Below, one piece after another: positions 4,420 through 40,395 of a stretch of 41,084 nucleotides of DNA. The notes under the pieces are model-generated. The model made no database searches, was not told the origin of the DNA, and saw nothing but the letters and a program-made list of their open reading frames with translations. The stretch's first letter is position 1. Each line of letters starts with the position of its first letter. The stretch is from the NCBI GenBank assembly GCA_036382455.1, contig DASVHT010000287.1, forward strand, positions 1 through 41,084, in the 5' to 3' direction. The translations under genes were made by a program, and so were the position numbers. The stretch is from Dermatophilaceae bacterium (GTDB lineage Bacteria; Actinomycetota; Actinomycetes; Actinomycetales; Dermatophilaceae).

Positions 4420-4543
4420 GCAGGATAGATCCCTTGAACGCCTCCAGCTGCTCCTCGTCGGGCAGTACCGGGAACAGCCGCTAGGCCGGGATAGATCCCA
4501 TCAACGCCTCCAGCTGCTCTTCGTCGGGCAGCCCCGGGAACAC
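4413..4543. repeat. Tandem ~65-bp direct duplication (2 units, about 88% identical) of the adnB 3' terminus
   Basis: Unit 1 spans 4413-4477 (ccgctaggcaggatagatcccttgaacgcctccagctgctcctcgtcgggcagtaccgggaacag). Unit 2 spans 4478-4543 (ccgctaggccgggatagatcccatcaacgcctccagctgctcttcgtcgggcagccccgggaacac). Unit 2 encodes the real AdnB C-terminus on the minus strand. Unit 1 encodes a relic ..LFPVLPDEEQLEAFKGSILP. Confidence 0.85.
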
Positions 4544-7500: not shown

Positions 7501-7837
7501 AGACCGTGGGCGTCCCCCCAAGTACCTCGGCGCCGTCCTGCTCCTCTGCAGGTGCCCACATTCCGACGTGACGCAGCCGGCGCAGGCGCCTCGCGATGCG
7601 CTCGGCGAGCTCGGTGGCGGCCTTGCGGGTGAAGGTCAGACCCAGGACCTGGTCAGGCTCGACATCACCGTTGGCGACCAGCCAGACGACCCGTGAAGCC
7701 ATCGTCTCGGTCTTGCCGGAGCCGGCACCGGCCACCACCAGCAGTGGACGCATGGGCGCCTCGATGACGGCGACCTGCTCCGCGGTCGGCGCCGGGTTGC
7801 CCAGGGCGTCCGCGATCGAGCGCGCAGAGTGCCGCAT
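4481..7837 (-). CDS. adnB: Helicase-nuclease AdnB (UvrD-like motor plus C-terminal RecB-type nuclease)
   Basis: It has Walker A VVAGAGSGKTETM and UvrD-like motifs. The C-terminal PD-(D/E)XK motifs are GRIDAV...VVDWKTG...QLGAYRL. The start is placed at ATG 7837, which forms an ATGA overlap with the adnA stop. The track ORF extends to 7972 but would overlap adnA by 135 nt. Confidence 0.85.
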   Translation of the reverse strand: MRHSARSIADALGNPAPTAEQVAVIEAPMRPLLVVAGAGSGKTETMASRVVWLVANGDVEPDQVLGLTFTRKAATELAERIARRLRRLRHVGMWAPAEEQDGAEVLGGTPTVSTYHSYAGRLVREHGLRLGVEPESRLLSEAAAWQFAAEVVERHDGPMDEVPFAASTVINAVVDLAGEMAEHLLEPADLALLIDRFEALVTSLPKGASRARDLPKAVADAMTALKARRQVLPLVDDYIQLKRSRDALDFADQMALAARLSQGFPDIGSMERQRFRAVLLDEFQDTSEAQLVLLRHLFVSVGESVPVTAVGDPNQSIYGWRGASATTLTRFPREFADAAGDATVLPLSTSWRNERAILSAANITSAPLRHKSTVDVQVLRARADAGTGQLFAARLLTSEAEAAHVAGWVAHRWLDARGRPTGVSAAVLCRKRSQFGAVIDALEQAGLPVEVVGLGGLLHTPEVSDIVALLWVVQDPTRGDQLMRLLTGPLCRLGAADLDGLAVWSRILVHRHAARSLAPDRPQAKDQSLDSADRLSIVEALDDLPSQDWTGPDGSRISGVALQRLHGLREAIRRLRSLTGMPLADLAGEAERALGLDIEVLSRPEHTPTTARAHLDAFADVAASFSSSADRPTLAGFLSWLDAAQAEERGLDKGYIEVSTDAVQVLTVHAAKGLEWDVVAVPGLVEGTFPARSSSTTSFKGGAWRMSPPRDKGWVGGLSGVPYDLRGDRDGLPVLQWKSAPDLSALEGEVIDFIEAGGEHGIDEERRLAYVAFTRARSQLLLSAPVWAEPTTPRITSRFLTELVDHADLGLRPHIWEPLPEPDGDTKSANPRQSEPVSAIWPADPMAARRAQLTDAVQVVLDAMADLDRDDVHAPPIDGDHVGQVSGRGGGDGPTVVGRERDIAILLAERDSATRTGDVEVKVPRHLSASGVVSFAEDPQGFARDLRRPMPSPPALAARRGTAFHAWVEEHFARAAFVDPLDLPGSADDHPADDEELPLMKERFLASEWARRTPIAIETAIETTVADMAIRGRIDAVFPRAGGGFTVVDWKTGAKPSGDKAAVRAVQLGAYRLAFARLRRVSLDQVDAAFYYAETGETVFPGLPDEEQLEALMGSIPA

Positions 7838-10800: not shown

Positions 10801-11037
10801 ACACCGATCAGGCGCGACCCCGTCGCTACGGACCCGGTCGACCACGATCTCGATGGCGGTGGTGGTCTTGCCCGTTCCTGGGGCGCCGAGGACACGAAGC
10901 ACCCCTGCGGCGTGACGCTGAGCGGCCGCAGCGTCATGACTCCAGGGCATGGTGCGGTGGGCGACCGCAGCAGCCTGCGCCTCGTCCAGGCTCAGGGCCC
11001 CGTTGACCGGGCCGGGAGCCCGTCGCAATGTCAGCAC
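7837..11037 (-). CDS. adnA: Helicase-nuclease AdnA (UvrD-like plus C-terminal RecB-type nuclease with Cys cluster)
   Basis: It has Walker A GAPGTGKTTTA and the nuclease motif GRVDRL...VVDLKTG...QLGGYQV. A 4-Cys pattern (FSDC...CTSCSVRSSC) is typical of Fe-S nuclease domains. It uses a GTG start at 11037 and is translationally coupled to adnB. Confidence 0.85.
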   Translation of the reverse strand: MLTLRRAPGPVNGALSLDEAQAAAVAHRTMPWSHDAAAAQRHAAGVLRVLGAPGTGKTTTAIEIVVDRVRSDGVAPDRCLVLTASRTAAAELRERITGRIGGTTTEPLARTHQALGFGILRQAAALRGDPSPRLLSGPEQDVILRELLAGHVSGEGKAPDWPSHVQAALATRGFRAELRDLLMRAVERGLEAADLAALGIAHERPEWVAAAQILAEYDEVTAFSRPGSYDPAWILGAAADLIEEDPQARERLASSLSLIVVDDAQELTPSAARLLEVVRAPHIDLVLIGDPDAAVQTFRGADPRILGADHSRFGHGPTITLATSYRQPAALREVTHRVTRRIGAVGGGIQRELEHVPEGGRVDVSLLRATSQEAALIAAELRQAHLLDRMPWSDMAVIVRGQGRTSTLRRVLVAAGVPVAVPATEVAVRDEMAVRPLLALLEVALNLAAGAPDPIDTGTAVDVVLSPIGGADAVGLRRLRRALRRDELDSGGGRTSDELLAQSLVVPTALGVLGPEGASARRVAKAIAAGVSAARMVDDGDGRRWAPGVTAESVLWAMWDATGLGESWRRVALGGGLPGARADRHLDAVLALFDAAARYVDRLPQMGPRGFLEHIRGQDVAGDTLVARAPSDDTVSLLTPAGAAGRQWRFVVVAGVQEGVWPDLRLRGSLLGSERLVDVISDRGQSLRAAQAAVRYDETRLFLVAVSRASERLLVTAVRSDDEQPSVYLDIVDPQTESDGGDELRSFSEVPRPMTLAGLVAELRREVVIGATVRDRHTAARQLARLAAARVVGADPSSWWALTALSDDRPLRAEGSSVAVSPSRIESFSDCNLRWLLSACGGDGPGLGAANIGTLVHDIAADLGDVDEASMREEVEVRWARLGLPQGWLSRRQLSEAKTMVSRLARYFEESATRGWERVGVELDLQVQLGRATLRGRVDRLERDGSGCLRVVDLKTGSSKPARADLLRNAQLGGYQVAVEKGAFAEHGIASAGAALLQLGKAAGVRTTVQEQRPLSADDDPGWAEALVRDTAEGMAGSEFVATVGPSCTSCSVRSSCPVQPEGKVI

Positions 11038-11106
11038 GCGCAGATTCCATCACCGCCCACCGACGGAGGTCGCGAGATCTGGCTGCACCAACGCCCTGAG
11101 ACGCAC

Positions 11107-11159
11107 GAATGCCCCGGCCGTAGGGCCAGGGCATTCAATGTTGCAGAAAAGGTTCTGCA
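11107..11159 (-). terminator. Two stem-loops immediately downstream of cspA (candidate intrinsic terminator)
   Basis: The first is tgcagaa-aagg-ttctgca (11142-11159, 7-bp stem). The second is gaatgccc..ggcc gtag ggcc..gggcattc (11107-11136). Both lie directly after the cspA stop at 11168. Confidence 0.5.
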
Positions 11160-11167
11160 GGCTGAGA

Positions 11168-11371
11168 TCAGAGCGGGCGGATGTTCTCCGCCTGCGGGCC
11201 CTTCGGACCCTGGGTGATGTCGAACTCAACCTTCTGGTTCTCATCGAGCGAGCGGTATCCGCTGCTGGCGATGGCCGAGTAGTGCGCGAACACGTCGGCG
11301 CTGCCGTCCTCGGGAGCAATGAAGCCGAAGCCCTTTTCAGCGTTGAACCACTTCACGGTGCCTGTTGCCAT
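11168..11371 (-). CDS. cspA: Cold-shock protein (CSD, 67 aa)
   Basis: The product reads [34 protein letters not shown], containing the RNP1 and RNP2 motifs. ATG 11371 is preceded by GGAGGA (complement of 11381-11386). A leader of roughly 200 nt may lie upstream, because the next gene ends at 11606. Confidence 0.95.
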
Positions 11372-11605
11372 AACTGTTTTTCCTCCAAGAGCGCTCTGTC
11401 GATCCCGAAAGCCGGGTCCGATCGTCGCGGTGTTCGTCGTCCGCTCCAGATCAGGAACAAAGCGCACCCCCGGCACGAGGCCGCAAGCGTTCAAGACGTG
11501 CGATGCACAGCAACTACGGGTGCGACCCTACCCCAGGAGGGGTCAATATGTGGTGTTCTCCAGTCCTGCAGCAGGCAAAGGATTCACCACCACCCCGCGG
11601 ACACC

Positions 11606-11983
11606 TCATTCGGGTCTGTCGACATCCAGCTCATGGCCGTCCCATCGGGCCAGCCCCATGTCCACCCGTCGTCCGGCGAGGGCACCTCTAACCAGGGCCG
11701 TCCCCTCCTCACACCAGTGCGCCAGCGCTTCGTCCTGCAGACCCTCGGGGGCCTCGCCGCTCGCGCGGATCACGCGCCACCAGGTCACAGACGAGCCGTA
11801 ACGGGACATCACCGCCCCAACCTGCCGAGGGCCGCCCTGCCCGAGCATCTCGGCGATGTCTCCGTAGGCAAGAACCATGCCCTCCGGGATCTGGTCGACG
11901 ACGCAGAGCACGGCCTCCACGAACGCGGGCAGCTCAGACGAACCCGGCTTGTATTCCGGCTCGTCACCGTGGGTTGCAGCCAT
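11606..11983 (-). CDS. Alkyltransferase-like (ATL) protein: MGMT DNA-binding domain without the catalytic Cys
   Basis: It has the MGMT-type segment IPEGMVLAYGDIAEMLG...PRQVGAVM. TWWRV stands in place of the PCHRV active site. Its position matches Rv3204 synteny. Confidence 0.75.
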   Translation of the reverse strand: MAATHGDEPEYKPGSSELPAFVEAVLCVVDQIPEGMVLAYGDIAEMLGQGGPRQVGAVMSRYGSSVTWWRVIRASGEAPEGLQDEALAHWCEEGTALVRGALAGRRVDMGLARWDGHELDVDRPE

Positions 11984-12000
11984 GGGCTGATGGGTGCGGC

Positions 12001-13191
12001 TCAGTACGTCGGCTGGGAGGGGTCGACGTCGCGCACCCAGGCGAGCACTCCGCCCTCCAGGTTGCGAACGTCCGGATGACCTGCCTCGATCAGGATCCGC
12101 GAGGCCTCCTCCGACCGACTGCCCGACCTGCAGTGGATGACGACCGTCTGGTCAAAAGGGATCTCCAACAGCGCTGCCCCAGAACGAAATTCGTCAAGAT
12201 GGATGGCCCGCGCCCCCGGGATGTTGGCGATCGCCCGCTCCTCGCTACCACGCACATCGACCAGCAGGACGGACGGCGACCCGCTGCCGGGGAACAGACC
12301 AGCCAGCTCCCGCGCCGAGATGACGGGCACCGCGGCGCCCGCGGCTGCTGGGACCGAGCCACCCGGCATACCGCAAAAGCCCTGGTAGTCCACCAGCTCG
12401 GTGACCGATGGCGACTCGCCGCACACGGCGCAGTCAGGGTCCTTGCGCACTGCAAGCGCGTCCCAGCTCTGGCGCAGGGCGTCGTGCACCATCAACCGGC
12501 CGATCAGCGGATCTCCAATGCCAACAATGAGTTTGACGGCTTCGGCCGCCTGGATAGACCCGACGGCCGCACAAAGGACCCCGAGCACTCCCCCCTCGGC
12601 GCAGGACGGCACGAGACCCGGTGGAGGCGGCTCGGGGAACACGCAGCGGTAGCAGGGGCCGTGCTGCGCCCACCAGATGCTGATCTGACCGTCGAAGCGA
12701 TAGATCGAACCCCAGACGTCCGGCTTGCCCAACAGAACACACGCGTCATTGAGCAGGTATCGGGTCGGGAAGTTGTCGGTCCCGTCGAGGACGAGGTCGT
12801 AGGCACCAATGATCTCGAGGGCGTTGGTCGAGTCGATCCGGACGTCGTGCCTGACGACCCGCACCAGTGGGTTGATGGACGCCAGTGTCTCCGCGGCCGA
12901 CTCGGACTTGGGCCGGCCGACGTCCGCCACCCCGTGAACAACCTGCCGCTGCAGGTTAGACGTCTCCACGACATCGGCGTCGACCACCCCGATGGTCCCG
13001 ACGCCGGCGGCCGCGAGGTACATCAACGCGGGCGACCCCAGCCCACCCGCTCCGACGACCAGCACCCGTGCGTTCTTGAGGCGGCGCTGACCCTCCATGC
13101 CCACCTGCGGGATAAGGACGTGCCGGGCGTACCGGCCGACCTCCTCGGTGGACAACGGCGCGGATGGCTCGACGAGGGGCGGAAGTGCCAT
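12001..13191 (-). CDS. moeZ: Adenylyltransferase/sulfurtransferase MoeZ (ThiF/MoeB domain plus C-terminal rhodanese)
   Basis: It has GAGGLGSP (nucleotide loop), CYRC and CAVC zinc motifs, and the rhodanese loop HCRSGSRS. The preferred start is ATG 13191 (MALPPLVEP). The track ORF starts at 13227. Confidence 0.9.
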   Translation of the reverse strand: MALPPLVEPSAPLSTEEVGRYARHVLIPQVGMEGQRRLKNARVLVVGAGGLGSPALMYLAAAGVGTIGVVDADVVETSNLQRQVVHGVADVGRPKSESAAETLASINPLVRVVRHDVRIDSTNALEIIGAYDLVLDGTDNFPTRYLLNDACVLLGKPDVWGSIYRFDGQISIWWAQHGPCYRCVFPEPPPPGLVPSCAEGGVLGVLCAAVGSIQAAEAVKLIVGIGDPLIGRLMVHDALRQSWDALAVRKDPDCAVCGESPSVTELVDYQGFCGMPGGSVPAAAGAAVPVISARELAGLFPGSGSPSVLLVDVRGSEERAIANIPGARAIHLDEFRSGAALLEIPFDQTVVIHCRSGSRSEEASRILIEAGHPDVRNLEGGVLAWVRDVDPSQPTY

Positions 13192-20852: not shown

Positions 20853-20908
20853 GCCACATGGCGCAGGTCCGTCATTGATCGAGCACGCGCGCCGGTGCGC
20901 CATCAATG
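20853..20908. repeat. Left copy of a 56-bp direct repeat with an internal hairpin
   Basis: The sequence is gccacatggcgcaggtcCgtcattgatcgagcacgcgcgCCggtgcgccatcaatga. It differs at 3 of 56 positions from the copy at 21934-21989. The internal inverted repeat is gtcattgat/atcaatgac (20871-20910), with an inner gcac/gtgc pair. Confidence 0.9.
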
Positions 20909-20982
20909 ACGCGCTTGCTCCATGTGACTTATCCACAAGGCTTCGACGCGACCGGGCCCAGTCGGGCCATGCTGTCCCCACC

Positions 20983-21921
20983 ATGAACGACCTTCTCGCG
21001 GCACTCACCGCAGCGCACTTCGGTGCCTTCACCTCGCGGGACGCCTACGCCTGCGGGTACCACGGGCAGTCTCTGAGCCAGCTCGTGCGTCGCGGCCGGG
21101 TGCTGCGGGTGGGACCCGGTGCGTATGTCGATCGGGACCGTTACGAGGCCGCCTCGCCGCAGCGACGGCACGAGATGGCGGCCCGAGCCGTGGTGCGCAC
21201 CTTCGACGGCAGGGTCTGCGCCAGCCACTACTCGGCGCTCACGCTGATGTCGTTGCCGGTCTTCGGAGCGCCGCTGGACCACATCCACGTGGCACGAACC
21301 GTCGACTCGCTGAGTCGGCGTCGTCCGGGGCTCTCGATCCACACGGCATACGCCCCTGGCTCCGGATGCGTCGTTGGCGGGACCCTCAGTGTCACCCCGG
21401 CCCTGGCCATCCTCGGCGCTGCGATGGCTTGCGGCATCGAGACAGGGGTCGTGGCCGCTGATGCCGCATTGGCCTCCGGGCGGACGACGGTGGATGACCT
21501 CCAGACCTGGCTCGGCAGACTCTCGAGGCATCGTGATGTGACCCGCGCGCGCCAAGTCGTGCGGTTGGCAGATGCGCGATCAGAGTCAGTCGGCGAGTCA
21601 CGAGCTCGCTTGCTGCTCAATGCCCTTGGCTACCGCCCGATCCCCCAGGTCGAGATTCGTGACCCCCAGGGACGGCTGGCGGGGCGCGTCGACTTCCTTC
21701 TGGAGGGGGAGCGGATCATCGTCGAGTTCGATGGGCTCATGAAGTACGCCGATGCCCACGGGCGCGATGCGTTGGCTGCCGAGAAGTCGCGTGAGGACCG
21801 GCTGCGCGCGCTCGGCTACGAGTTCGTCCGGCTGACGTGGGCCGATCTGACGCGACCGTCGACGGTCGAACGCATGCTGCGCATGGCCGTTGCGAGGGCC
21901 TCGGCCCGGCGCGCCAGCTGA
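20983..21921 (+). CDS. DUF559 (Vsr/restriction-endonuclease-like fold) protein with an AbiEi-type N-terminal wHTH
   Basis: The N-terminus reads FGAFTSRDAYACGYHGQSLSQLVRRGRVLRVGPGAYV. The C-terminus reads GRVDFLLEGERIIVEFDGLMKYA...REDRLRALGYEFVRLTWADL, a DUF559-like core. The preferred start is ATG 20983. Confidence 0.75.
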   Translation: MNDLLAALTAAHFGAFTSRDAYACGYHGQSLSQLVRRGRVLRVGPGAYVDRDRYEAASPQRRHEMAARAVVRTFDGRVCASHYSALTLMSLPVFGAPLDHIHVARTVDSLSRRRPGLSIHTAYAPGSGCVVGGTLSVTPALAILGAAMACGIETGVVAADAALASGRTTVDDLQTWLGRLSRHRDVTRARQVVRLADARSESVGESRARLLLNALGYRPIPQVEIRDPQGRLAGRVDFLLEGERIIVEFDGLMKYADAHGRDALAAEKSREDRLRALGYEFVRLTWADLTRPSTVERMLRMAVARASARRAS

Positions 21922-31057: not shown

Positions 31058-32191
31058 ATGCCAGCTCCGTCGCAGGACGCCCTCTTAGCCGCCCTCTCCA
31101 AGGTCATCGACCCCGAGATCCGCAAGCCGATCACCGAGCTCGGCATGGTCGAGTCGGTCGGCGTCGACGAGTCCGGGCGAGCCGCCGTCACCATCCTGCT
31201 GACGATCTCTGGCTGCCCCCTCAAGGAAACCCTGACCCGCGACACCACGGCTGCGCTTCTGGCCGTCGAAGGCGTCACGAGCGTCGGCGTGACTCTGGGG
31301 GTCATGAGCGACGAGCAGCGCACCGAGCTGCGAACCACCCTGCGTGGCGGCAACACCGAGCGTGAGATCCCCTTCGCCCAGCCCAACAGCCTGACCCGGG
31401 TCTACTGCGTGGCTTCGGGCAAGGGCGGCGTGGGTAAGTCGTCGGTGACGGTCAACCTCGCTGCCGCCATGGCGCAGGATGGCCTGCGGGTCGGCGTGGT
31501 GGACGCGGACGTCTACGGCTTCTCGGTGCCGCGCATGCTCGGCGTCGAACGGCACCCCACCCAGGTCGATGACATGATCCTGCCGCCGCTGGCCCACGAC
31601 GTGAAGGTCATCTCGATCGGCATGTTCGTCCCGGGCAACCAGCCCGTCGTCTGGCGCGGGCCCATGCTGCATCGGGCGCTGCAGCAGTTCCTGGGTGACG
31701 TGTTCTGGGGTGACCTGGATGTGTTGCTGCTCGACCTGCCGCCGGGAACCGGCGACATCGCGATCTCGGTGGCACAGCTCATTCCGAACGCTGAGATCCT
31801 GGTTGTGACCACGCCGCAAAAAGCTGCCTCCGAGGTTGCCGAACGCGCCGGTTCCATTGCGCTGCAGACACATCAGCAGATCGCCGGGGTCATCGAGAAC
31901 ATGTCGTGGCTCGAGCTCCCGGACGGCACCCGCCACGAGATCTTCGGTGCCGGTGGAGGCCAGGTCGTCGCCGACTCGTTGACACGCTCGATCGGCGCGC
32001 CGGTTCCGTTGCTGGGCCAGATCCCCATGGACACCCGACTGCGCGAAGGCGCCGACTCCGGGATGCCGGTCGTTCTGGGCGAGCCCGACAGCCCCTCGGC
32101 GGTTGTCCTGCGCGAGATCGCCCGCGGCCTCTCGACCCGTGCTCGTGGGCTCGCAGGTCGCTCGCTCGGGCTGACTCCCGCCGGTAGATAA
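31058..32191 (+). CDS. mrp: Mrp/ApbC/NBP35-family Fe-S cluster carrier ATPase with an N-terminal DUF59-like domain
   Basis: It has VIDPEIRKPITELGMV (DUF59/FeS-assembly SUF-type), the deviant Walker A SGKGGVGKSS, and GVIENMS. Confidence 0.9.
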   Translation: MPAPSQDALLAALSKVIDPEIRKPITELGMVESVGVDESGRAAVTILLTISGCPLKETLTRDTTAALLAVEGVTSVGVTLGVMSDEQRTELRTTLRGGNTEREIPFAQPNSLTRVYCVASGKGGVGKSSVTVNLAAAMAQDGLRVGVVDADVYGFSVPRMLGVERHPTQVDDMILPPLAHDVKVISIGMFVPGNQPVVWRGPMLHRALQQFLGDVFWGDLDVLLLDLPPGTGDIAISVAQLIPNAEILVVTTPQKAASEVAERAGSIALQTHQQIAGVIENMSWLELPDGTRHEIFGAGGGQVVADSLTRSIGAPVPLLGQIPMDTRLREGADSGMPVVLGEPDSPSAVVLREIARGLSTRARGLAGRSLGLTPAGR

Positions 32192-32192
32192 G

Positions 32193-32282
32193 CCCGGCGC
32201 AGACACCGAAAACCCGCCGCAGACACGAAAGCCCGCCGCAGAGACGTAGTCACGCTGCAGGCACGTAACCCGGCGCAGACGA
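32193..32282 (+). repeat. Five head-to-tail degenerate ~19-bp repeats (consensus CCCG[G/C]CGCAGACAC)
   Basis: Copies start at 32193, 32213, 32232, 32251 (degenerate, cacgctgcaggcac) and 32269. The array begins 2 nt after the mrp stop and lies upstream of the ArsR-regulated operon. Confidence 0.7.
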
Positions 32283-32324: not shown

Positions 32325-32356
32325 TCAACACTGATGACTATCTGATAGTTTCATCA
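32325..32356 (+). promoter_or_regulatory. AT-rich imperfect palindrome (candidate ArsR-family operator) overlapping a candidate promoter
   Basis: TGATGACTATC-T-GATAGTTTCATCA spans 32332-32356, with inner arms ctatc/gatag and outer arms tgatga/tcatca. A possible -35 tcaaca (32325-32330) and -10 tagttt (32347-32352) are spaced 16 nt apart. The site is 32 nt upstream of the ArsR ATG and is the most AT-rich spot in the window. Confidence 0.45.
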
Positions 32357-32387
32357 TGTGCGTATTTGAGTGAAGGAGCATCAATCG

Positions 32388-32741
32388 ATGTCAGATCCGA
32401 TCTACACGTTGAAAGCTGAGTTCTTCAAGACCCTTGGGCACCCTGCACGGATCCGGATTCTGGAGCTTCTCGCCGAAGGCGAGCACTCGGTGACCGAGCT
32501 CATGCCGAAGCTCGGGCTCGAGTCCTCCCACCTTTCACAGCAGCTCGCGGTACTGCGCAGGGCCGGGATGGTGACGGCCCGCAAGCAGGGAAACAACGTG
32601 ATCTACTCGATGAGCTCGACGGATATGGCCGAGCTGCTCATGGTCGCCCGGAAGGTGCTGACCGGACTGCTCACCGACCAGGTGGGCCTGCTGAAGGACC
32701 TGCAAGCCAGCAGCAGGGCCACCGAACGAGCCAGCCGCTGA
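32388..32741 (+). CDS. ArsR/SmtB-family transcriptional regulator lacking Cys metal ligands (Rv0081-like)
   Basis: The wHTH reads LGHPARIRILELLAEGEHSVTELMPKLGLESSHLSQQLAVLRRAGMV. The protein has no cysteine, so there is no ELCVCD-type site. ATG 32388 is preceded by GAAGGAG. Confidence 0.85.
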   Translation: MSDPIYTLKAEFFKTLGHPARIRILELLAEGEHSVTELMPKLGLESSHLSQQLAVLRRAGMVTARKQGNNVIYSMSSTDMAELLMVARKVLTGLLTDQVGLLKDLQASSRATERASR

Positions 32742-32778: not shown

Positions 32779-33258
32779 ATGAGCTGGCTCGCGAAGATCC
32801 GCCGGGTCGGGCGCATGGTGGAGCCGGCGGGTGAGGCCCCTGAGGTGACCGTCGCCCCTCCCACGGGTGTCACCGGCTCCCTTCAGCTCCGGCACGTGGA
32901 CTCAGGTTCCTGCAACGGCTGTGAGCTCGAGATCGCCGGCGCCTTCTCCCCCGTGTATGACGCGGAGCGGTTCGGAGCGCGCCTGGTCGCCTCACCCCGC
33001 CACGCCGACGCAGTGCTCGCGACGGGCGTGGTCACCCACAACATGCGCCAACCGCTGCTCAACACCTTGAACGCGGTTCCGGAGCCCCGCCTCGTGATCG
33101 CCGTTGGCGACTGCGCCTGCAATGGCGGTGTGTTCACCAAGGGTTACGGCGTGGTCGGTCCGGTCGGCGACGTCATACCAGTGGATGTGCACGTGCCCGG
33201 CTGTCCGCCCACCCCCCCGCAGATCATCGCGGCCCTGCGAACGGTGACCGGTCGGTGA
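32779..33258 (+). CDS. NuoB / group-4 hydrogenase small-subunit-like protein (single [4Fe-4S] motif set retained)
   Basis: It has GSCNGCELE, GDCACNGGVF and PGCPPTP, the four Cys of the proximal/N2-type cluster. At 159 aa it matches Rv0082. An AGGAGA RBS is present. Confidence 0.85.
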   Translation: MSWLAKIRRVGRMVEPAGEAPEVTVAPPTGVTGSLQLRHVDSGSCNGCELEIAGAFSPVYDAERFGARLVASPRHADAVLATGVVTHNMRQPLLNTLNAVPEPRLVIAVGDCACNGGVFTKGYGVVGPVGDVIPVDVHVPGCPPTPPQIIAALRTVTGR

Positions 33259-35261
33259 GCACCGCGGTTCACAGCCCCCCCATGCTGCCGGCGCCGGTGG
33301 GTGGCCCCGTGCCCGAGCGCCACGTCGGTGCTGAGGCAGCGTTGTCCGGAGGTCTCACCTCCCTCCTGGGAGCGGCCGGGCTGGCTCTGGGCCTGAGCGT
33401 GATCTTCGGCGACCCCCGGCATCTGCGGATCGGCTGGCTGCTGCCCCTGGTCGGCGTCAGCTTCGATCTCGATCCCCTTGGCGGGGTGTTCGTAGCGGCG
33501 ACAGGCGCGGTCTCGGTCGCGGTCGGGGTCTACTCCGTCGGGTACGCCAAACGGGGACGCTGGGCTCGTCTTCCGATGGTCACACTGCCACTGTTCGTGG
33601 CCGGCTTGCTCCTCGTTCCGGCGGCGGGATCGGTGACAACGTTTCTGCTGTCCTGGGAGCTGATGGCCGCGACGTCGCTTGTCCTCGTGCTTTCCGAGCA
33701 CCGACGTGATGCCGTGAGGTCCGCCGGGGCGTTCTACGCGGTCATGACCCAGCTGGGTTTCGTGGCGATCCTGCTCGCCCTGGTGATTCTGGCCGCCGCC
33801 GGCGGCGGAGACACCTTCGCGACCATCGCCGCGCACGCACCCGGGCTCACGTCCGGCACCCGAACAACGGTGTTTCTGCTGACGCTCGTGGGATTCGGGT
33901 CGAAGGCTGGTCTGCTGCCACTGCATGCATGGCTGCCGAAGGCGCACCCTGAAGCACCCAGCCCGGTCTCGGCCTTGATGAGCGCGGCGATGGTCAACAT
34001 GGGCATCTATGGCATCATCCGGATCGACCTCCAGCTGCTCGGCCCGGGCCCCCACTGGTGGGGACTGACGCTCATGATCTTCGGGGCGCTCTCAGCAGTC
34101 TTCGGGGTGCTGCAGGCCTCCGTGGCGACCGACCTGAAGCAGCTGTTGGCCTACTCAACCACCGAGAACATGGGACTGGTCACCCTGGCTCTGGGTGCCG
34201 CCGCCCTTCTTAGCTCCTCCGGCGCCCCGGCAGTGGCCGCGATCGCGATGACGGCCGCACTCCTGCACCTCCTGAGCCATGCTGCCTTCAAGTCCCTCGG
34301 TTTCCTGGCCGCTGGATCCGTGCTGTCCGCGACCGGCCTGCGCGACCTGGACAAGCTCGGGGGGCTGGCCCGCCGTATGCCCGCCACGACCGTTCTGTTC
34401 GGCATTGCCGCGCTCGGCGCGTCAGGGCTTCCGCTGGGTGCAGGCTTCGCCAGCGAGTGGCTCCTGTTCCAAAGCCTCATCCACTCCCCCCACGACTCCA
34501 ACACGGTGCTCGCACTTGCGATGCCATTGTCGGTGGGCGCTGTCGCACTCACGACCGGGCTCGGGATCGCAGCCATGGTCAAGGCGTTCGGGGTCGGGTT
34601 CCTGGCCAGGCCACGTACGGCGGCCGCTGGGGCCGCCCGCGAAGCACCGGCCAGCATGCTTGCCGGCATGTCTCTGGCCGCCGCGGCCTGCACCGTGTTC
34701 GCGGTCGCACCGGTCCTGCTCGGCCCGACCCTCCGGCATGTGCTGGGCGAGCTGCCCACACTCGGTGGCAGCGCCGAGGGTCCGGCGCTCGGCACGATCC
34801 TGCGCCTGCCGGGTGTGGCCGGCTCGATCTCCCCGGGACTGCTCGCAGCTGCCCTCGTCATCGCCATCCTGCTCGCCGCCGGTATCGCCCGCTGGAGCAC
34901 GCGACACCGCCCTCCGGCGACGGAGACAGCGCTCTGGGCATGTGGCGCCGACGCACTCGGCCCAAGGATGCAGTACACCGCCACGTCCTTCGCGGAACCC
35001 CTGCAGCGCGTCTTCGACGACATCCTGCGGCCCGACACCGACGTGGAGATCACCCACTTCGCGGAGTCGCAGTACCTCGTCGAGAAGGTCACCTACCGAA
35101 CCCGGCTGGACGACCCGGTGGAGCAACGCTTCTACACCCCGGTGGTCCGTGCCGTGAGGATGTGGGCCCAGCTGGTACGACGCGCTCACAACGGCAGCAT
35201 CCACCTCTACCTGACGTACGGCGCCCTGTGGATGCTGATCGTGCTCCTGGTCGCAAAATGA
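33255..35261 (+). CDS. NuoL/HyfB-like antiporter-type membrane subunit
   Basis: It is 668 aa and polytopic, with Mrp/NuoL signatures (LPLHAWLPKAHPEAPSPVSALMSAAMVNMGIYGIIR, LAYSTTENMG). It has a GTGA overlap with the upstream gene. Confidence 0.85.
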   Translation: MSTAVHSPPMLPAPVGGPVPERHVGAEAALSGGLTSLLGAAGLALGLSVIFGDPRHLRIGWLLPLVGVSFDLDPLGGVFVAATGAVSVAVGVYSVGYAKRGRWARLPMVTLPLFVAGLLLVPAAGSVTTFLLSWELMAATSLVLVLSEHRRDAVRSAGAFYAVMTQLGFVAILLALVILAAAGGGDTFATIAAHAPGLTSGTRTTVFLLTLVGFGSKAGLLPLHAWLPKAHPEAPSPVSALMSAAMVNMGIYGIIRIDLQLLGPGPHWWGLTLMIFGALSAVFGVLQASVATDLKQLLAYSTTENMGLVTLALGAAALLSSSGAPAVAAIAMTAALLHLLSHAAFKSLGFLAAGSVLSATGLRDLDKLGGLARRMPATTVLFGIAALGASGLPLGAGFASEWLLFQSLIHSPHDSNTVLALAMPLSVGAVALTTGLGIAAMVKAFGVGFLARPRTAAAGAAREAPASMLAGMSLAAAACTVFAVAPVLLGPTLRHVLGELPTLGGSAEGPALGTILRLPGVAGSISPGLLAAALVIAILLAAGIARWSTRHRPPATETALWACGADALGPRMQYTATSFAEPLQRVFDDILRPDTDVEITHFAESQYLVEKVTYRTRLDDPVEQRFYTPVVRAVRMWAQLVRRAHNGSIHLYLTYGALWMLIVLLVAK

Positions 35262-36217
35262 GCGCCCTGGGAGGCGCGGCAGCCGCACTGCAGGTGGTGG
35301 GTGTCCTGGCCGGAGCACCCTTGGTCGTGGGCGGGATGCGCCAGGTGCGCGCCCGGCTGGAGGGTCGTACCGGGGGCGGCATCGCTCAGCCCTGGCGGGA
35401 CCTTCGCAAACAGCTTCGCAAGCAGCAGATCACCCCCAGGGGAACCACCGTGGTGTTCGCCCTGGCCCCGGCGGTCGTGGCCGGTAGCACGCTGCTGATT
35501 GCCGCGATCGTGCCGATGATCGCCCTGGGGTCTCCGTTGGACTCGGCCGCCGACCTCTTCGGCGTCGTTGGCCTGCTGTTCCTCGGAACGGTCGCCCTGA
35601 CCCTGGCCGGTCTGGACACCGGCACCGCGTTCGGCGGCATGGGGTCCAGCCGCGAGATCACCATCGCAGCCCTTGTCGAGCCCACCATCCTGCTGGCTGT
35701 CTTCGCCCTGTCCGTCCCCGGACACTCAGCCAACCTGGCTGCCATCGTCACCGGGACCACTCACAACCCCGGGCAGGTACTCACGCCTGGAAGCCTCTTG
35801 GCCTTCGTCGCGCTGATCATCGTGATCATCGCCGAGACCGGACGGCTGCCGGTGGACAACCCCACAACCCACCTCGAGCTGACGATGATTCATGAGGCGA
35901 TGGTCCTGGAGTATGCCGGCCCCAAGCTGGCACTGGTCGAGTGGGCGAGCGCCATGCGCCTCACGGTCCTGCTCGCACTCGTTGCGAACCTGTTCCTGCC
36001 CTGGGGCATTGCCGGAGCTGACCCGTCCCTGCTGACCATCGTTCTTGGTGTGGCGGCGATCACCATCAAGGTCGTTGTGCTCGCCAGCCTGCTCGCGGCC
36101 GGCGAGGTGTTCATCGCCAAGCTCCGGTTGTTCCGGGTGCCCGAGCTGCTGGCCGGCTCGTTCCTGCTCGCCCTGCTGGCGGTCACCGCGTCATACGTCC
36201 TCGCTGCGTCCAACTGA
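35258..36217 (+). CDS. NuoH/HycD/HyfC-like membrane subunit
   Basis: It has RLPVDNPTTHLELTMIHEAMVLEYAGPKLAL, a NuoH-family conserved loop. It has an ATGA overlap with the upstream stop (35258-35261). The track merges it with an out-of-gene upstream extension (34457..). Confidence 0.85.
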   Translation: MSALGGAAAALQVVGVLAGAPLVVGGMRQVRARLEGRTGGGIAQPWRDLRKQLRKQQITPRGTTVVFALAPAVVAGSTLLIAAIVPMIALGSPLDSAADLFGVVGLLFLGTVALTLAGLDTGTAFGGMGSSREITIAALVEPTILLAVFALSVPGHSANLAAIVTGTTHNPGQVLTPGSLLAFVALIIVIIAETGRLPVDNPTTHLELTMIHEAMVLEYAGPKLALVEWASAMRLTVLLALVANLFLPWGIAGADPSLLTIVLGVAAITIKVVVLASLLAAGEVFIAKLRLFRVPELLAGSFLLALLAVTASYVLAASN

Positions 36218-36273
36218 CCGCAAACCGATCAACGCCATGAACCAACGCCCTGACACGAGCAGATAGAGAGCAG

Positions 36274-36936
36274 ATGACCCAGACCACCTACACCGGCGCG
36301 CTCGATCTGGCTGCGGGAGCGTTTCTGCTGGCCGCTGTCCTGATCGTGTGGCGCCGTGAGCTCCGCGCCATCGTCCGGCTGCTCGCGTGGCAAGGCACAG
36401 CCCTGGCTGCGATCCCTCTCATCGAAGGCGTCCAACAGCGTGATGCGGCCCTCATCACGGTCGGGGTCATCGTGCTCCTCCTGAAGGCGCTCGCGCTTCC
36501 GGTCCTGCTCGGACGGGTCGTCGGGACCGAGGTTGGAGAACGCCGTGAGAGCACACCACTGGTCAACACCACCGCTTCTCTGCTGATCACCGCAGGTCTG
36601 ACGGTTCTGGCCTACGCGGTAACCCGGCCGATCATCGCCCTGGATCCCACGGCGGCAACCCGTGCGGTGCCGGCCTCGTTCGCCGTGATTCTTATTGCCA
36701 TCTTCGTCATGGTCAGCCGGCGCCGTGCCTTGTCCCAGGCCGTTGGTTTCCTGATGCTGGACAACGGGATCGCGGCCACCGCCTTCCTGATCACCGCCGG
36801 TGTCCCCCTCATCGTCGAGCTCGGCGCCTCGCTCGACGCGCTGTTCGCCGTCCTGGTCCTGGGTGTGCTCACCGGGCGCATGCGCCGCGCCTTCGGGGAC
36901 ACCGACCTCGATCAGCTACGGGAGCTGCGCGACTGA
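36274..36936 (+). CDS. HyfE/HycP-like small membrane subunit (NuoK-related)
   Basis: It is 220 aa with about 7 hydrophobic helices. Its size and position are identical to HyfE and Rv0085. Confidence 0.7.
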
Positions 36937-38405
36937 TGAACATCCTGCTCCTGGCACCGATCCTCGCTCCGCTCACCGCGGCTGTGCTTGCAGCCCTGAT
37001 GGGTTGGCGGCGGCTGAGCGCCTCCGTGACCGTCCTCGCCGCACTTTCCGTGTTGATCAGTGGCGCCGCCATCGGACTCCGTGTTGGGGATGGCGCTCAG
37101 TTCGGTGTTGGGCGTCTGCTGCGCGCCGACGCGCTCAGCGTCACGATGCTCGTCGTCATCGGAACGGTGGGCACCCTGGCCACCTGGGCCAGCGTCGGCT
37201 ACATCAACGCCGAGCTCGCCCACGGGCACACCGACCGCAAAGGCGCGAACCTCTACGGCATGCTGGTGCCGGTCTTCCTGGCCGCCATGGCGCTCGCGGT
37301 CCTGGCCAACAACATCGGCGTGATGTGGGTTGCCATCGAAGCAACGACGGTGGCGACCGCGTTTCTCGTCGGGCACCGCCGGACCCGCGCCTCCCTGGAA
37401 GCCACCTGGAAGTACGTCGTCATCTGCTCCGTCGGCATCGCTCTGGCGTTCCTGGGCACGGTTCTGCTCTACTTCGCCAGCCTGCACGCCGGCGCCTCGA
37501 GCAGCAACGCCCTGGACTTCGACGTTCTCCTCACCCATGCCGCACAGCTCGACCCCGCCGTGACCCGCCTGGCCGCCGGACTGTTGCTGCTGGGCTACGG
37601 AGCCAAGGCCGGACTCGTCCCGTTCCACACCTGGCTGGCTGACGCACACAGCCAGTCCCCCGCACCGGTGTCGGCGCTGATGAGCGGGGTCCTGCTGTCG
37701 GTGGCATTCTCTGCACTTCTTCGCGTCAAGGCGGTCGTCGACCTGGCGCTCGGCACCGGGTTCCTGCGCATCGGCCTGCTCATCGTCGGGCTCCTCACCA
37801 TGCTTGTTGCCGCCTCGCTACTCGTGGTCCAGACGGATTTCAAACGGATGCTGGCCTACTCCTCGATGGAGAACATGGGCCTGGTCGCGGTCGCGGCGGC
37901 CGCAGGAACCAAGCTCGCCATTGCCGCGCTGCTGCTTCACGTGCTGGCCCACGGGATCGGAAAGGCCCTGGTGTTCCTCGCTGCGGGGCAGCTGCAGGCC
38001 GCGCACGACTCCACCGCGATCGATGACGTCACCGCGCTGCTGGCCCGATCTCGCCTGGTCGGCACGGCGTTCGCCGTGGGTCTCGTGGTCCTGCTGGGCC
38101 TGCCGCCGTTCGCCATGTTCGCCAGCGAGCTGTCCATCTCCCGCGCTCTCGCAGGCGCCCACCTCGAGTGGGCGCTCGCCGTCGCGCTCCTGCTCATGGT
38201 CATCGCCTTCGCCGCCCTCGTCCTCAACGGGGCCAGGATGCTGCTTGGCCCCCCGGACGAGAGCTCGCCGCCAATCGTGGTTCCCCGCTCCGTCGCCGGT
38301 GCGCTCATCACAGGCGTCATCCTGAGCGTGGTTCTGGGCCTGACTGCCGGCCCGTTGACGCACCTCTTCCACACCGCCGCCACTCTGCTCGGAGCCGCCG
38401 AATGA
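36936..38405 (+). CDS. NuoN/NuoM/HyfF-like antiporter-type membrane subunit
   Basis: It has GAKAGLVPFHTWLADAHSQSPAPVSALMSGVLL and LAYSSMENMG. It has a TGATG overlap with the upstream gene. Confidence 0.85.
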   Translation: MNILLLAPILAPLTAAVLAALMGWRRLSASVTVLAALSVLISGAAIGLRVGDGAQFGVGRLLRADALSVTMLVVIGTVGTLATWASVGYINAELAHGHTDRKGANLYGMLVPVFLAAMALAVLANNIGVMWVAIEATTVATAFLVGHRRTRASLEATWKYVVICSVGIALAFLGTVLLYFASLHAGASSSNALDFDVLLTHAAQLDPAVTRLAAGLLLLGYGAKAGLVPFHTWLADAHSQSPAPVSALMSGVLLSVAFSALLRVKAVVDLALGTGFLRIGLLIVGLLTMLVAASLLVVQTDFKRMLAYSSMENMGLVAVAAAAGTKLAIAALLLHVLAHGIGKALVFLAAGQLQAAHDSTAIDDVTALLARSRLVGTAFAVGLVVLLGLPPFAMFASELSISRALAGAHLEWALAVALLLMVIAFAALVLNGARMLLGPPDESSPPIVVPRSVAGALITGVILSVVLGLTAGPLTHLFHTAATLLGAAE

Positions 38406-39931
38406 CCCTCGAACCTCACATGAGCGGCGTCCCGGCCGGTGTTCACCGCACGACCCGTAACCTCGGAGCGGCCGAGCTCGCCGACGCTGCCGCGGCACTG
38501 TTTGCTGCGGGCTTCCGTCTCGGCCTGGTCGCAGCGCACGACGACGGCGCCACCCTGCGAGTGGTGTACCTCTTTCTCGCCGGCGCGCCCGACCGGCGCG
38601 TCGAGCTCCAGGTCACGCTCCCGGCGGACGACCCGCGACTACCCACGCTGGCCTCGTTGTCCTTCCCCGCCTCACGCTTCGAGCGCGAGATGCACGACCT
38701 CTTCGGGATCGTGCCCGTCAACCACCCACAGCCCCGCCGACTGGTTCGACACGCGCACTGGCCCGCAGGCTGGTACCCGATGCGCCACAACGCCGGACCC
38801 CCGCCACCCTTCACCGAGACCGAGCCCTACCCCTTCGTCGAGGTGCAGGGGGACGGTGTCTATGAGATCCCGGTGGGACCCGTCCATGCCGGCATCATCG
38901 AACCTGGACACTTCCGCCTCTCCGTCGTCGGAGAAAGCATCCTCAAGCTCAAGGCCCGGCTCTGGTTCACCCACCGTGGCGTCGAGAAGCTCTTCGAGGG
39001 CCTTGACGCCACACGCGCCATCCACCTGGCCGAACGCATCAGTGGTGACACCTCGGCCGGGCACGCTCTGGCCCACAGCCTGGCCGTCGAAGACGCACTC
39101 GGCATCACCATGCCCGAACCAGCCCAACGGCTGCGCGCCCTGGTCCTCGAGCTCGAACGCCTCTACAACCACGCCGCAGACCTCGGCTCGCTGGCCAACG
39201 ACACCGGCTTCGCGCTCGCCAACGCCCATGCGCAACGGATCCGCGAGCAGCTGCTGCGGATCAACAGCACCACCACAGGTCATCGACTGCTCCGGGGCGC
39301 CATCAGCCCCGGCTTTGTGGGGCTCCTGGCCCTGCCTGATCCGGCCCAGCTGGCACTGATCGCAGAAGACCTCGCAGAAGTCGCGGCGCTGATCCTGGCC
39401 AACACCGTTGTCCGCGACCGGTTCACCGGCACCGCCGTCCTCACCCCCGACCAGGCACAGGACCTCGGCTGCCTCGGCTATGTCGCCCGCGCCAGCGGCC
39501 TGGCGACCGACGCACGCATCGACCACCCAAGCGCCGAGCTTCTCATTACGCCTGTCACCCGGACCACTGGAGACGTCCTGGCCCGCTTCACCATCCGCGT
39601 GGAAGAGTTCGCGGCCGCAACCCAGCTCGCAGCTGACCTGATCAGTAAGGCCGACCTCCTGACCTTCCGGGATGCACGAGTGGAGCCGGCCATCGACGGG
39701 CACGGCTCCGGCGGGGCACGAAGCGGGGTCGGCATCGTCGAAGGATGGCGCGGAACCATCGTCCATCGCGTCGAGGTGGACGGTGACGGACGCCTGACCC
39801 GGGCAAAGATCGTGGACCCGTCCTGGTTCAACTGGCCAGCGCTGCCGGTCGCTCTTGCCGGCACGATCGTGCCCGACTTTCCCCTGACCAACAAGAGCTT
39901 CAACCTCTCCTATGCAGGGAACGACCTCTGA
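38402..39931 (+). CDS. NuoC-NuoD / HycE-like fused 'large subunit' lacking all [NiFe]-ligand cysteines
   Basis: The NuoC-like N-terminus reads FPASRFEREMHDLFGI. The NuoD/HycE-like core reads GPVHAGIIEPGHFRLSV...WFTHRGVEKL. At the L1 motif position it has ERISGDTSAGH instead of RxCGxCxxxH. The C-terminus is KSFNLSYAGNDL instead of DPCxxCxxR/H. There is one Cys in 509 aa. It has an ATGA overlap with the upstream gene. Confidence 0.85.
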   Translation: MTLEPHMSGVPAGVHRTTRNLGAAELADAAAALFAAGFRLGLVAAHDDGATLRVVYLFLAGAPDRRVELQVTLPADDPRLPTLASLSFPASRFEREMHDLFGIVPVNHPQPRRLVRHAHWPAGWYPMRHNAGPPPPFTETEPYPFVEVQGDGVYEIPVGPVHAGIIEPGHFRLSVVGESILKLKARLWFTHRGVEKLFEGLDATRAIHLAERISGDTSAGHALAHSLAVEDALGITMPEPAQRLRALVLELERLYNHAADLGSLANDTGFALANAHAQRIREQLLRINSTTTGHRLLRGAISPGFVGLLALPDPAQLALIAEDLAEVAALILANTVVRDRFTGTAVLTPDQAQDLGCLGYVARASGLATDARIDHPSAELLITPVTRTTGDVLARFTIRVEEFAAATQLAADLISKADLLTFRDARVEPAIDGHGSGGARSGVGIVEGWRGTIVHRVEVDGDGRLTRAKIVDPSWFNWPALPVALAGTIVPDFPLTNKSFNLSYAGNDL

Positions 39932-39939: not shown

Positions 39940-40395
39940 TCAGACGGTTGGCCCCGCACCCTCAACCGGCGTGAGGAGGAAGACCGGTATCTCCCGATCC
40001 GTCTTGACCTGATAGTCCGCATAGTCGGGGAAGGCAGCCACGCACCGCCTCCACCAGATCGCCTTCTCCTCTCCCGCGAGCTCACGGGCTGTCATGGCGC
40101 GGACGAGCGTGCCGTCCCGCACCTCCACGTGCGGATCGGCCACAAGGTTGGAGTACCAGCGGGGATTTGCGGGAGCGCCACCCTGGGAGGCCACCGCGGC
40201 ATACTCCCCGTTGTGCTCGACCCGCATCAGAGGCACCTTGCGCACCTTGCCCGACCTCACGCCGCGCGTGGTCACGATGATCACCGGCATCCCGCGCATC
40301 GTCGTGCCGGACGTGCCTCCGGATCCTTCGTAGAGCTCGACCTGGTCGCGGACCCAGCGTGCGGGGCTGGGGGCATACTCACCGTTGCTGGACAT
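39940..40395 (-). CDS. Deazaflavin (F420H2)-dependent nitroreductase/quinone reductase family protein (Ddn-like, DUF385)
   Basis: The product reads [56 protein letters not shown], the typical Ddn/PF04075 split-barrel signature. Confidence 0.8.

Follow-up and report, generated by a model that had tools for sequence, protein, structure and literature searches.

Positions 1 to 41,084 (∼41 kb) of contig DASVHT010000287.1 of a Dermatophilaceae bacterium were analysed and are referred to below as the window. It harbours a six-gene operon (Table 1) whose products resemble the subunits of group 4 [NiFe] hydrogenases and of complex I. The operon is an intact six-gene cluster of the energy-converting hydrogenase related (Ehr) type and an ordinary member of a widespread, already named family; that the locus encodes an Ehr complex and not a [NiFe] hydrogenase can be stated with high confidence.

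The arrangement of the six ORFs and the lengths of their products agree with the original prediction, the coordinates being exact. Four junctions are overlapping (GTGA at 33255, ATGA at 35258, TGATG at 36934-36938 with the ATG at 36936, and ATGA at 38402) and a 56-nt gap (36218-36273) precedes the gene of the HyfE-like subunit, just as had been described. A script check revealed no internal stops in the six structural ORFs, and an ORF check placed the ATG start of EhrB within a longer ORF. Identical copies (100%) of the operon proteins are encoded on six independent contigs, which come from different samples and include the metagenome-assembled genome (MAG) GCA_036803665.1. All NCBIfam equivalog models of hydrogenase 3/4 and Nuo subunits score under their curated cut-offs; in the case of the hydrogenase 3/4 models, scores of 565.9, 341.5 and 82.3 were obtained against cut-offs of 667, 610 and 136, respectively.

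Table 1. Positions of the Ehr operon, of other features of the window and of features of related loci (L numbers) mentioned in the text.
Feature	Position	Strand	Product size	Assignment
ArsR regulator	32370..32741	+	117 aa from the probable true start, ATG 32388	ArsR/SmtB-family helix-turn-helix regulator, Rv0081-like; PF01022 1.1e-12, NF033788 2.6e-25
EhrS	32779..33258	+	159 aa	NuoB/HycG-like small subunit; PF01058 1.2e-29
EhrA	33255..35261	+	668 aa	HyfB/HycC/NuoL-like antiporter-type subunit; PF00361 6e-52
EhrB (named by analogy)	35258..36217	+	319 aa	HycD/NuoH-like, connects the peripheral with the membrane part; PF00146 2.5e-39
EhrC	36274..36936	+	220 aa	HyfE-like small membrane subunit; NF008556 4.4e-23, under its cut-off
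EhrD (named by analogy)	36936..38405	+	489 aa	HyfF/NuoN/M-like antiporter-type subunit; PF00361 2.2e-47
EhrL	38402..39931	+	509 aa	Fused NuoC + NuoD/HycE-like large subunit; PF00329, PF00346, PF00374
Candidate operator	32332..32356	.		AT-rich imperfect palindrome, putatively of the Rv0081-type repressor; read directly from the sequence
19-bp tandem repeat	32190-32280			Consensus AAGCCCGCCGCAGACACGA; 4.8 copies, 75% matches
Mrp/ApbC	31058-32191	+		NUBPL-family Fe-S cluster carrier, directly upstream of the Ehr operon
Ddn-like reductase	39940-40395	-		F420H2-dependent quinone reductase; PF04075, 4.4e-46
AdnAB-like pair	4481-11037	-		UvrD-helicase/PD-(D/E)XK nuclease
AbiEi-type regulator	20875-21921	+		Antitoxin-like regulator
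L003 transposase	4091-5176			IS110 family; PF01548/PF02371
L050 EhrS	10789-12039			Ferredoxin-fused EhrS
L062 EhrS	11516-12391			Ferredoxin-fused EhrS
L076 EhrS	11431-12237			Ferredoxin-fused EhrS
L081 EhrS	11438-12241			Ferredoxin-fused EhrS
L082 EhrS	1983-2855			Ferredoxin-fused EhrS
L067 Ehr clusters	2-11996			Two in tandem, Nitrospirota
L070 Ehr clusters	2-11997			Two in tandem, Nitrospirota

Large subunit and its family

Besides the NuoC and NuoD domains, EhrL matches the N-terminal segment of NiFe hydrogenases (PF00374). Its best solved relative is HycE of Escherichia coli (7z0s_E, 7.8e-59), a match to MbhL being obtained at 1.3e-27. In the HMMER alignment RVCGICGFAH of HycE pairs with RISGDTSAGH of EhrL and DPCYS[C] with NLSYA[G], which places S214, T217, S503 and G506 at the four Ni-Fe Cys positions of HycE. 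The predicted loss of all four ligand Cys is thus confirmed, in the correct frame and on all six contigs, and the only Cys of the protein, which had indeed been described as having a single one, is C357. Since RMDY of Thermus thermophilus Nqo4 aligns with RISG of EhrL, the position of the quinone-binding Tyr of complex I is occupied by Gly215, and the RLDY-type Tyr is absent, as anticipated. EhrL ends three residues past the last ligand position (the L2 site) and hence carries no maturation peptide. Annotation with Pfam also bore out that hyp, hycI, fdhF, hycB, hycF and nuoI are missing from the window.

Because all four Cys are replaced, no C-terminal extension is present and the window is devoid of hyp, hycI, fdhF and hycF, the complex is not regarded as a hydrogenase; EhrL moreover belongs to a large Cys-less clan known in the literature as Ehr (PMC6728331, PMC10284858, PMC6349859). 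The original conclusion, namely that the complex is of the Ehr type and probably not a hydrogenase, and that an annotation as formate hydrogenlyase (FHL) would be wrong, is therefore upheld. A genuine group 4 [NiFe] hydrogenase or FHL, as proposed by many automatic annotations, could be argued for from HycE being the best solved relative and from public names of relatives such as 'Ni,Fe-hydrogenase III large subunit', but this reading is refuted at the sequence level: in addition to the absent ligands, the window has no genes for HycB/F, FdhF, Hyp or HycI, the operon has no poly-ferredoxin subunits, and every NCBIfam hydrogenase-4 model stays under its curated cut-off. What was found instead is the set of properties by which Ehr complexes are recognized, i.e. 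a large subunit homologous to those of group 4 and to NuoD with neither the L1 nor the L2 CxxC motif, a NuoB-like [4Fe-4S] subunit and NuoH- and Mrp-like subunits encoded together with it, and a grouping of the large subunit with Cys-less sequences rather than with true hydrogenases.

A confident AlphaFold2 model of EhrL built on 48 family members (pLDDT 88.6, pTM 0.91) shows an intact fold. Low confidence is limited to the beta1-beta2 loop (163-166), a stretch at residues 430-436 and the N-terminal end. The top Foldseek match of the model is again HycE (7z0s_E, TM-score 0.89, root-mean-square deviation 2.9 Å), followed by NuoCD of E. coli (TM-score about 0.8). A solved Ehr structure was not found among the PDB entries by sequence and Foldseek searches.

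Relatives were collected from one genome per species, and the best 80 loci, with 82 large subunits, were compared. At least 594 species were found to possess an Ehr relative. A word-indexed search with the large subunit gave at least 7987 matches, the nearest named ones among those listed being MAGs of Actinomycetota/Dermatophilaceae, and among 1.84 billion cluster representatives, which were searched exhaustively, 6434 matched at E≤1e-3 and 890 at E≤1e-30. About 80 of the 102 full-length top representatives are Cys-less and carry the replacement signature E-R-[IV]-S-G-D-[STNE]-x-x-x-H and K-S-F-N-L-S-Y-[AS]-G-x-D-L, while 16, about 40% identical to the query, have all four Cys. The same signature is present in the Cys-less majority of the genomic relatives (78/82 large subunits). 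The nearest representatives at 50% identity and the whole actinobacterial clade are Cys-less; in a neighbour-joining tree of 97 large subunits, for which the motif columns were masked, the resolution was too low to tell whether the Cys-less sequences are monophyletic or whether the Cys were lost only once. The names given to such proteins in public databases are inconsistent and include 'Ni,Fe-hydrogenase III large subunit/component G', 'NADH-quinone oxidoreductase subunit C', 'hydrogenase large subunit' and 'hydrogenase expression protein HypE' (P0304-P0308 and the match list).

In an alignment of 48 Cys-less large subunits (33-61% identity to the query), V158, G159, P160, H162, A163, G164, I166, G169, S503, Y504, G506 and D508 are invariant, while for E167, G215 and D216 the conservation is 90% or higher. 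Judging from this pattern, the replacement site is under purifying selection and the complex is maintained rather than decaying. The conserved pocket, together with the retained Cys of EhrS, the NuoH-type charges and the identical proteins on six contigs, is the reason for which the complex is held to be functional.

Small subunit and membrane subunits

EhrS retains the four Cys of the proximal [4Fe-4S] cluster, as originally noted: C45, C48, C112 and C142 align with the ligands of HycG (5.4e-36), MbhJ (2.3e-34) and NuoB, and are kept in 72-76 of 77 homologues. A fifth Cys (C114) is also present. The cluster ligation is of the hydrogenase-type CxxC (C-N-G-C), in contrast to the tandem CC of complex I. 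The first 44 residues of EhrS contain neither Cys nor a ferredoxin domain. In five Cys-less loci (L050, L062, L076, L081 and L082), belonging to Vicinamibacteria, Acetobacterium, Desulfitobacteriia and Solibacteraceae, EhrS is fused N-terminally to a segment with two ferredoxin-type Cys motifs; in L050, L062 and L076, the three of the five that were scanned, a 2x[4Fe-4S] dicluster domain was verified by Pfam. No description of this fusion was found in the literature searched. Ferredoxin domains fused to EhrS in relatives suggest that electron transfer by way of the EhrS cluster is what the family is designed for. The small subunit of acidobacterial and verrucomicrobial loci (L036, L037, L042 and others) bears a Cys-rich extension of 150 aa.

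Among the membrane subunits, EhrA is closest to hydrogenase 4 subunit B (NF005086, 1.2e-169, under the cut-off) and also matches HycC (2.3e-56), whereas EhrD is closest to hydrogenase 4 subunit F (NF005044, 9.5e-102, under the cut-off), its best solved relative being the MBS subunit 6u8y_H (1.7e-27). E135, K217, K346 and E401 of EhrA and E135, K224, K343 and E398 of EhrD are near-invariant within the family, i.e. the Glu of transmembrane helix (TM) 5, the Lys of TM7, the Lys of TM11 and the Glu of TM12 are kept in both antiporter-like subunits of essentially all relatives. The TM8 position of the NuoL-like subunit, which is Lys in 50 of 64 Cys-less relatives and in all four true hydrogenases, is Asn248 in the window and Thr in L007 and L008, Asn (or Thr) being the residue of the actinobacterial clade. 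The substitution of Asn for this Lys may alter the ion specificity or the stoichiometry.

EhrB matches HycD at 3.3e-36, and at least 90% of 68 homologues share D120, R132, E141, E193, R196, D200, H205, E207, H212, E213, E218, K271, E283, K288 and R290. EhrC has no match in Pfam and no sequence match in the PDB. With the profile of its family, a weak match to MbhG/MbsG ('antiporter subunit C', E = 0.03) was obtained across an (E/D)NGI membrane motif, and its C-terminal half is weakly MrpC/NuoK-like; P76, R149 and N164 are invariant.

Regulator, gene neighbourhood and related systems

The ArsR gene, for which gene callers take the 117-aa form, ends 37 nt before the small-subunit gene; in about 17 related loci the cluster is likewise directly preceded by an ArsR gene. 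The protein contains zero Cys, and its recognition helix ESSHLSQ has the S-S-x-x-S-Q spacing of Ser48/Ser49/Ser52/Gln53 in Rv0081. According to the structure paper on Rv0081, these SSxxSQ residues contact DNA, and Rv0081, which likewise lacks Cys or metal ligands, regulates its own expression via an inverted repeat (bioRxiv 10.1101/465575). The AT-rich palindrome upstream of the ArsR gene has the layout TGATGA-CTATC-T-GATAG-tt-TCATCA, i.e. TGATGACTATC-T-GATAGttTCATCA, in a region of otherwise 67% G+C, and is located 13 nt upstream of GTG 32370 and 31 nt upstream of the probable ATG 32388. In L008 and L009 (Mycobacterium sp.), too, its core CTATCTGATA(A)GTT precedes the ArsR gene, and different AT-rich palindromes take this place in L007, L022, L023, L025 and L028. 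The palindrome is likely to be the operator to which the Rv0081-type repressor binds. When the upstream region was scanned automatically for inverted repeats and for promoters and terminators, nothing was detected; the repeat scan missed the palindrome because of a 2-nt offset, and the palindrome was read by eye and backed by the comparison of loci. Just upstream of it, a 19-bp tandem repeat occupies the mrp/apbC-ArsR intergenic region and could represent regulator-binding sites or a repeat remnant.

Neither the NuoE/F/G input module nor NuoI was found in the operon or the window, no Fer4 domain was detected in any operon product, and all frames of the 41 kb are free of the CxxCxxCxxxC ferredoxin motif. 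Clustering of the 504 ORFs flanking the 80 loci returned only ArsR, sensor kinases, ABC-F ATPases, SulP/STAS transporters (four loci) and a GGDEF protein (likewise four) as recurrent, with no Fdh, NuoEF or Hyp among the recurring families. A SulP permease with a STAS domain stands directly upstream and on the same strand in L043, L057, L065 and L083, three of them proteobacterial and one of Terriglobia/Acidobacteriota; the idea of a CO2/bicarbonate function derived from these neighbours was dropped because such loci are too few.

Two immediate neighbours of the operon were considered as functional partners and rejected. The gene of a Ddn-like reductase is convergent with the EhrL gene, with 8 nt between the stop codons, and that of an Mrp/ApbC carrier precedes the operon. 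NUBPL/Ind1 serves as an assembly factor for the Fe-S clusters of complex I in eukaryotes. Both genes are next to the cluster in 0/80 related loci and were seen there in same-species contigs only, and since the adjacency does not recur it is treated as coincidence, which in the case of the Ddn-like gene it probably is. On an otherwise identical metagenomic contig (L003) an IS110-family transposase stands in place of the Ddn-like gene, a strain-level rearrangement at the 3' end of the operon. The rest of the window is made up of housekeeping genes, including those for UvrD, AdnAB-like helicase-nucleases, NudC, MoeB-like, TetR, DUF3107 and MiaE-like proteins and a DEAD helicase, as well as ParA-like, MarC, PHP, MaoC, AbiEi, M24 peptidase, YflT, acyl-CoA dehydrogenase, RIO kinase, an HpcH-type lyase, MgtE, DUF1003 and Mrp/ApbC. 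The AdnAB-like pair and the AbiEi-type regulator, which is found amid the housekeeping genes, belong to the ordinary actinobacterial context and are unrelated to Ehr.

Two operon architectures were observed in the family. The order (ArsR)-B-L-H-E-N-CD, which is that of the window, is found in Actinomycetota, Chloroflexota, Rokubacteria/Methylomirabilota and some members of the candidate phyla radiation (CPR), whereas L-H-E-N-CD-B, with the small subunit last, prevails outside the actinobacteria (Nitrospirota, Acidobacteriota, Proteobacteria, Omnitrophota, Verrucomicrobiota, Firmicutes and others). Loci of Mycobacterium sp., Streptosporangium, Nonomuraea and other taxa, with identities of 53-83%, have the order of the window, ArsR included; in the Mycobacterium sp. 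locus L009 all seven proteins are matched at 68-76% identity and in the same order. In two Nitrospirota loci (L067 and L070) an Ehr cluster E-N-CD-B stands in tandem with a second one, L-H-E-N-CD-B, downstream of it, the two differing at the replaced site of the large subunit (SGTS versus SGDT), and a Fibrobacteria locus (L052) likewise carries two Ehr sets.

The M. tuberculosis locus Rv0081-Rv0087 has been known as 'hyc' or as a predicted formate hydrogenlyase, and is regulated by DosR (hypoxia response), MprA and Rv0081. Compared by description, not by sequence, it consists of the same ArsR repressor and six genes in the same order as in the window, and the regulators agree in being free of Cys and of a metal site, in the SSxxSQ recognition helix and in the upstream inverted repeat. 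The flanks differ (mrp/DUF1003/mgtE upstream and the Ddn-like gene downstream in the window), as does the source, the window originating from an actinobacterium that is uncultured and has Dermatophilaceae MAGs as its closest named relatives. In 2019 the mycobacterial complex was called an EHR complex, 'not a functional hydrogenase' (PMC6728331), so that the Ehr reading, including that of the M. tuberculosis counterpart, is already published knowledge and not a discovery. The naming of Ehr (Coppi 2005) and a survey (Marreiros et al. 2013) precede it, with Ehr defined, as cited in PMC6349859 and PMC4758237, as group-4-like complexes without Ni-Fe ligands. Ehr has been viewed as a coupling module with an unknown partner (PMC6349859, PMC10284858), and the Ehr of comammox Nitrospira as close to group 4f hydrogenases, with its function not known (PMC10284858). 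Geobacter Ehr comprises the same kinds of subunits and is more abundant on formate (PMC7894505). Both the window and G. sulfurreducens GSU0739-0745 encode EhrS, EhrL, NuoL-like, NuoH-like and HyfE-like subunits and a second antiporter-like subunit, and in both the large subunit is without the two CxxC Ni-Fe motifs. The window differs from the Geobacter type in its gene order, with the small subunit first, in the Rv0081-type ArsR gene that heads the operon and in the Asn at the TM8 Lys position of the NuoL-like subunit.

The Hyq complex of Azorhizobium caulinodans (hyqRBCEFGI) shares with the window the six-subunit core, the fused NuoC-D large subunit without CxxC motifs and the replacement signature SGD(S/T) and SYxG; its small subunit has an N2-type cluster. 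HyqG-type sequences (P0213 type) are 37% identical to EhrL and carry SGDT and SYSG. The Cys-less alignment contains representatives from Alphaproteobacteria which are exactly 504 aa long and have Cys-491 and Cys-497, as reported for HyqG, and because they share this signature Hyq is a member of the same family. EhrL has T496 and L502 at the positions of these two Cys; HyqG also has Cys-258, while the only Cys of the window protein is C357. The Hyq gene order B-C-E-F-G-I places the small subunit last, whereas that of the window places it first. Deletion of the hyq operon alters H2 recycling (uptake) and evolution in vivo, while the catalytic site was never identified and is, in the words of the authors, 'uncertain, if not unlikely' (PMC2650096, PMC3357923). 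The original statement that no activity has been shown for Ehr-type complexes was therefore too strong with regard to the genetic evidence for H2 turnover by Hyq, which had been overlooked and to which nothing in the window is comparable. A cysteine-independent 'endo-hydrogenase' of this type, acting as an H2:quinone oxidoreductase, would be in line with the shared six-subunit Cys-less architecture, the common motifs and the in vivo phenotype. It nevertheless seems very improbable in the window: all known H2-activating sites require metals bound by Cys, EhrL lacks even the HyqG-specific Cys, hyp genes are missing from the window, and the evidence for Hyq itself is physiological only. Other authors hold that Ehr proteins cannot interact with H2 (PMC7304191, PMC6728331), the wording for those of CPR being 'likely cannot interact with H2' (PMC7304191).

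As for the better characterized complexes, the best solved relatives of four subunits belong to E. coli FHL or hydrogenases 3 and 4 (Hyc, Hyf; 7z0s), with which the operon has in common a beta1-beta2 loop of the hydrogenase type (EPGHFR) and CxxC ligands in the small subunit. Unlike these, the Ehr operon encodes neither Ni-Fe Cys nor a C-terminal maturation peptide nor HycB/HycF, and the window no FdhF, hyp or hycI. With complex I the operon has in common the modular architecture, the fold, the antiporter Lys/Glu and the NuoH acidic residues, but it has no NuoEFG, no NuoI and no separate NuoA/J genes, the quinone-ligating Tyr is Gly, and the N2 ligands are arranged differently. MBS/Mbx (membrane-bound sulfane reductase; 6u8y) and MBH (6cfw) of Pyrococcus furiosus are also derived from group 4 hydrogenases, and MBS, too, has lost the Ni-Fe site and reduces another acceptor; these archaeal complexes, however, have 13-14 subunits, a NuoI-like ferredoxin subunit and extra Mrp subunits, and are far more distant in sequence. 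By analogy with what has been proposed for MBS, the Ehr complex might reduce a soluble or non-quinone substrate at or beside the proximal [4Fe-4S] cluster and couple this to ion pumping. The affinity of EhrD to the MBS subunit, the conserved polar Ser/Asp/Thr/Ser pocket beside the cluster and the presence of the family in quinone-less organisms would fit, but no substrate can be named, no genes of sulfur metabolism or of another pathway are conserved nearby, the locus has no ferredoxin input, and the 13 subunits of MBS form a different set; this possibility is considered distinctly unlikely.

Proposed function

The best explanation of the locus, to which a probability of roughly 0.5 may be given, is a ferredoxin-fed ion-translocating oxidoreductase with menaquinone as the most plausible acceptor in this organism. 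The operon would be autoregulated, its Rv0081-type ArsR repressor and six structural genes forming the actinobacterial counterpart of Rv0081-Rv0087, and would probably be expressed in a stress or redox (hypoxia-type) response, as in the case of Rv0081-87. A soluble low-potential carrier, most plausibly ferredoxin, would dock on EhrS at the site taken by NuoI/HycF in complex I/FHL and reduce the single [4Fe-4S] cluster. The acceptor that then takes up the electron would sit in the remodelled pocket between EhrL, EhrS and the NuoH-like subunit, a pocket whose lining may be formed by Ser214-Gly215-Asp216-Thr217, Ser503-Tyr504-x-Gly506, Glu167 and His residues, all of them conserved; the host being a menaquinone-containing actinobacterium, menaquinone is the most plausible candidate. 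The resulting change in charge and protonation may be relayed, by conformational and electrostatic coupling, from the flexible beta1-beta2 loop through the acidic residues of the NuoH-like subunit to the HyfE-like subunit, and drive the translocation of H+ (or Na+) by the two antiporter-like subunits. The parts of this scheme differ in strength. Redox-coupled ion translocation as such is fairly probable, whereas the specific pair of a ferredoxin-type donor and menaquinone can be proposed only tentatively; the direction of electron flow and the pumping itself are, like the donor and the acceptor, deduced from the residues and genes described above.

Several observations weigh against this scheme. 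An entry module of the NuoI/HycF type is missing and a ferredoxin gene is present nowhere in the window, and no conserved partner gene was found around the cluster in the 80 loci. The Tyr that ligates the quinone in complex I is replaced by Gly, and Cys-less relatives occur in lineages reported or known to be quinone-less, namely Saganbacteria, CPR and Acetobacterium (PMC6349859, PMC7304191), so that quinone is not the universal acceptor of the family. In the NuoL-like subunit of the actinobacterial clade, the window included, the TM8 Lys is Asn. Finally, no biochemical study of any Ehr complex was found in the literature searched.

Part of the same evidence would suit a redox-gated cation/proton antiporter of the Mrp type without net catalysis, in which the EhrS/EhrL head senses the cytoplasmic redox state via its cluster and switches the ion flux. 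With one cluster only, no input module, no recognizable substrate site, no conserved redox partner in 80 loci, conserved antiporter residues, a stress-type repressor in control of the operon and an occurrence of the family in quinone-less fermenters and CPR (PMC7304191), this alternative finds some support, but it is rather unlikely: conservation is very strong both in the former active-site pocket and at the Glu of the hydrogenase-type proton path, the fused 2x[4Fe-4S] domains of relatives resemble an electron wire more than a sensor, and known Mrp antiporters require subunits of the MrpE/F/G type, which are absent here. The ferredoxin-fed oxidoreductase is retained as the preferred reading. 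A more speculative view, which also seems a long way from probable, is that the near-invariant polar set of Ser-Gly-Asp-Ser/Thr, Ser-Tyr-x-Gly, the retained Glu167 and His beside the cluster constitutes a kind of site new to the complex I superfamily, serving in catalysis or in the binding of a cofactor or an ion, the alternative being a merely degenerate pocket. If true, it would imply undescribed chemistry, for instance a substrate yet to be identified being reduced at the cluster, or H2 turnover independent of Cys as has been claimed for Hyq.

The locus adds one more intact example to the Ehr family and confirms that the automatic names given to its members are misleading. It opens no new question, its interest residing mainly in the long-blank function of the family, which the window makes no more testable than the mycobacterial, Geobacter and Azorhizobium loci already do. 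Experimental handles are nevertheless offered by the conserved replacement signature, the two operon architectures, the ferredoxin-fused small subunits and the recurrent Rv0081-type regulator. One must bear in mind that Ehr complexes are very widespread, with at least 594 species in a single scan and thousands of protein clusters, and that they hold an evolutionary position between membrane-bound hydrogenases and complex I.

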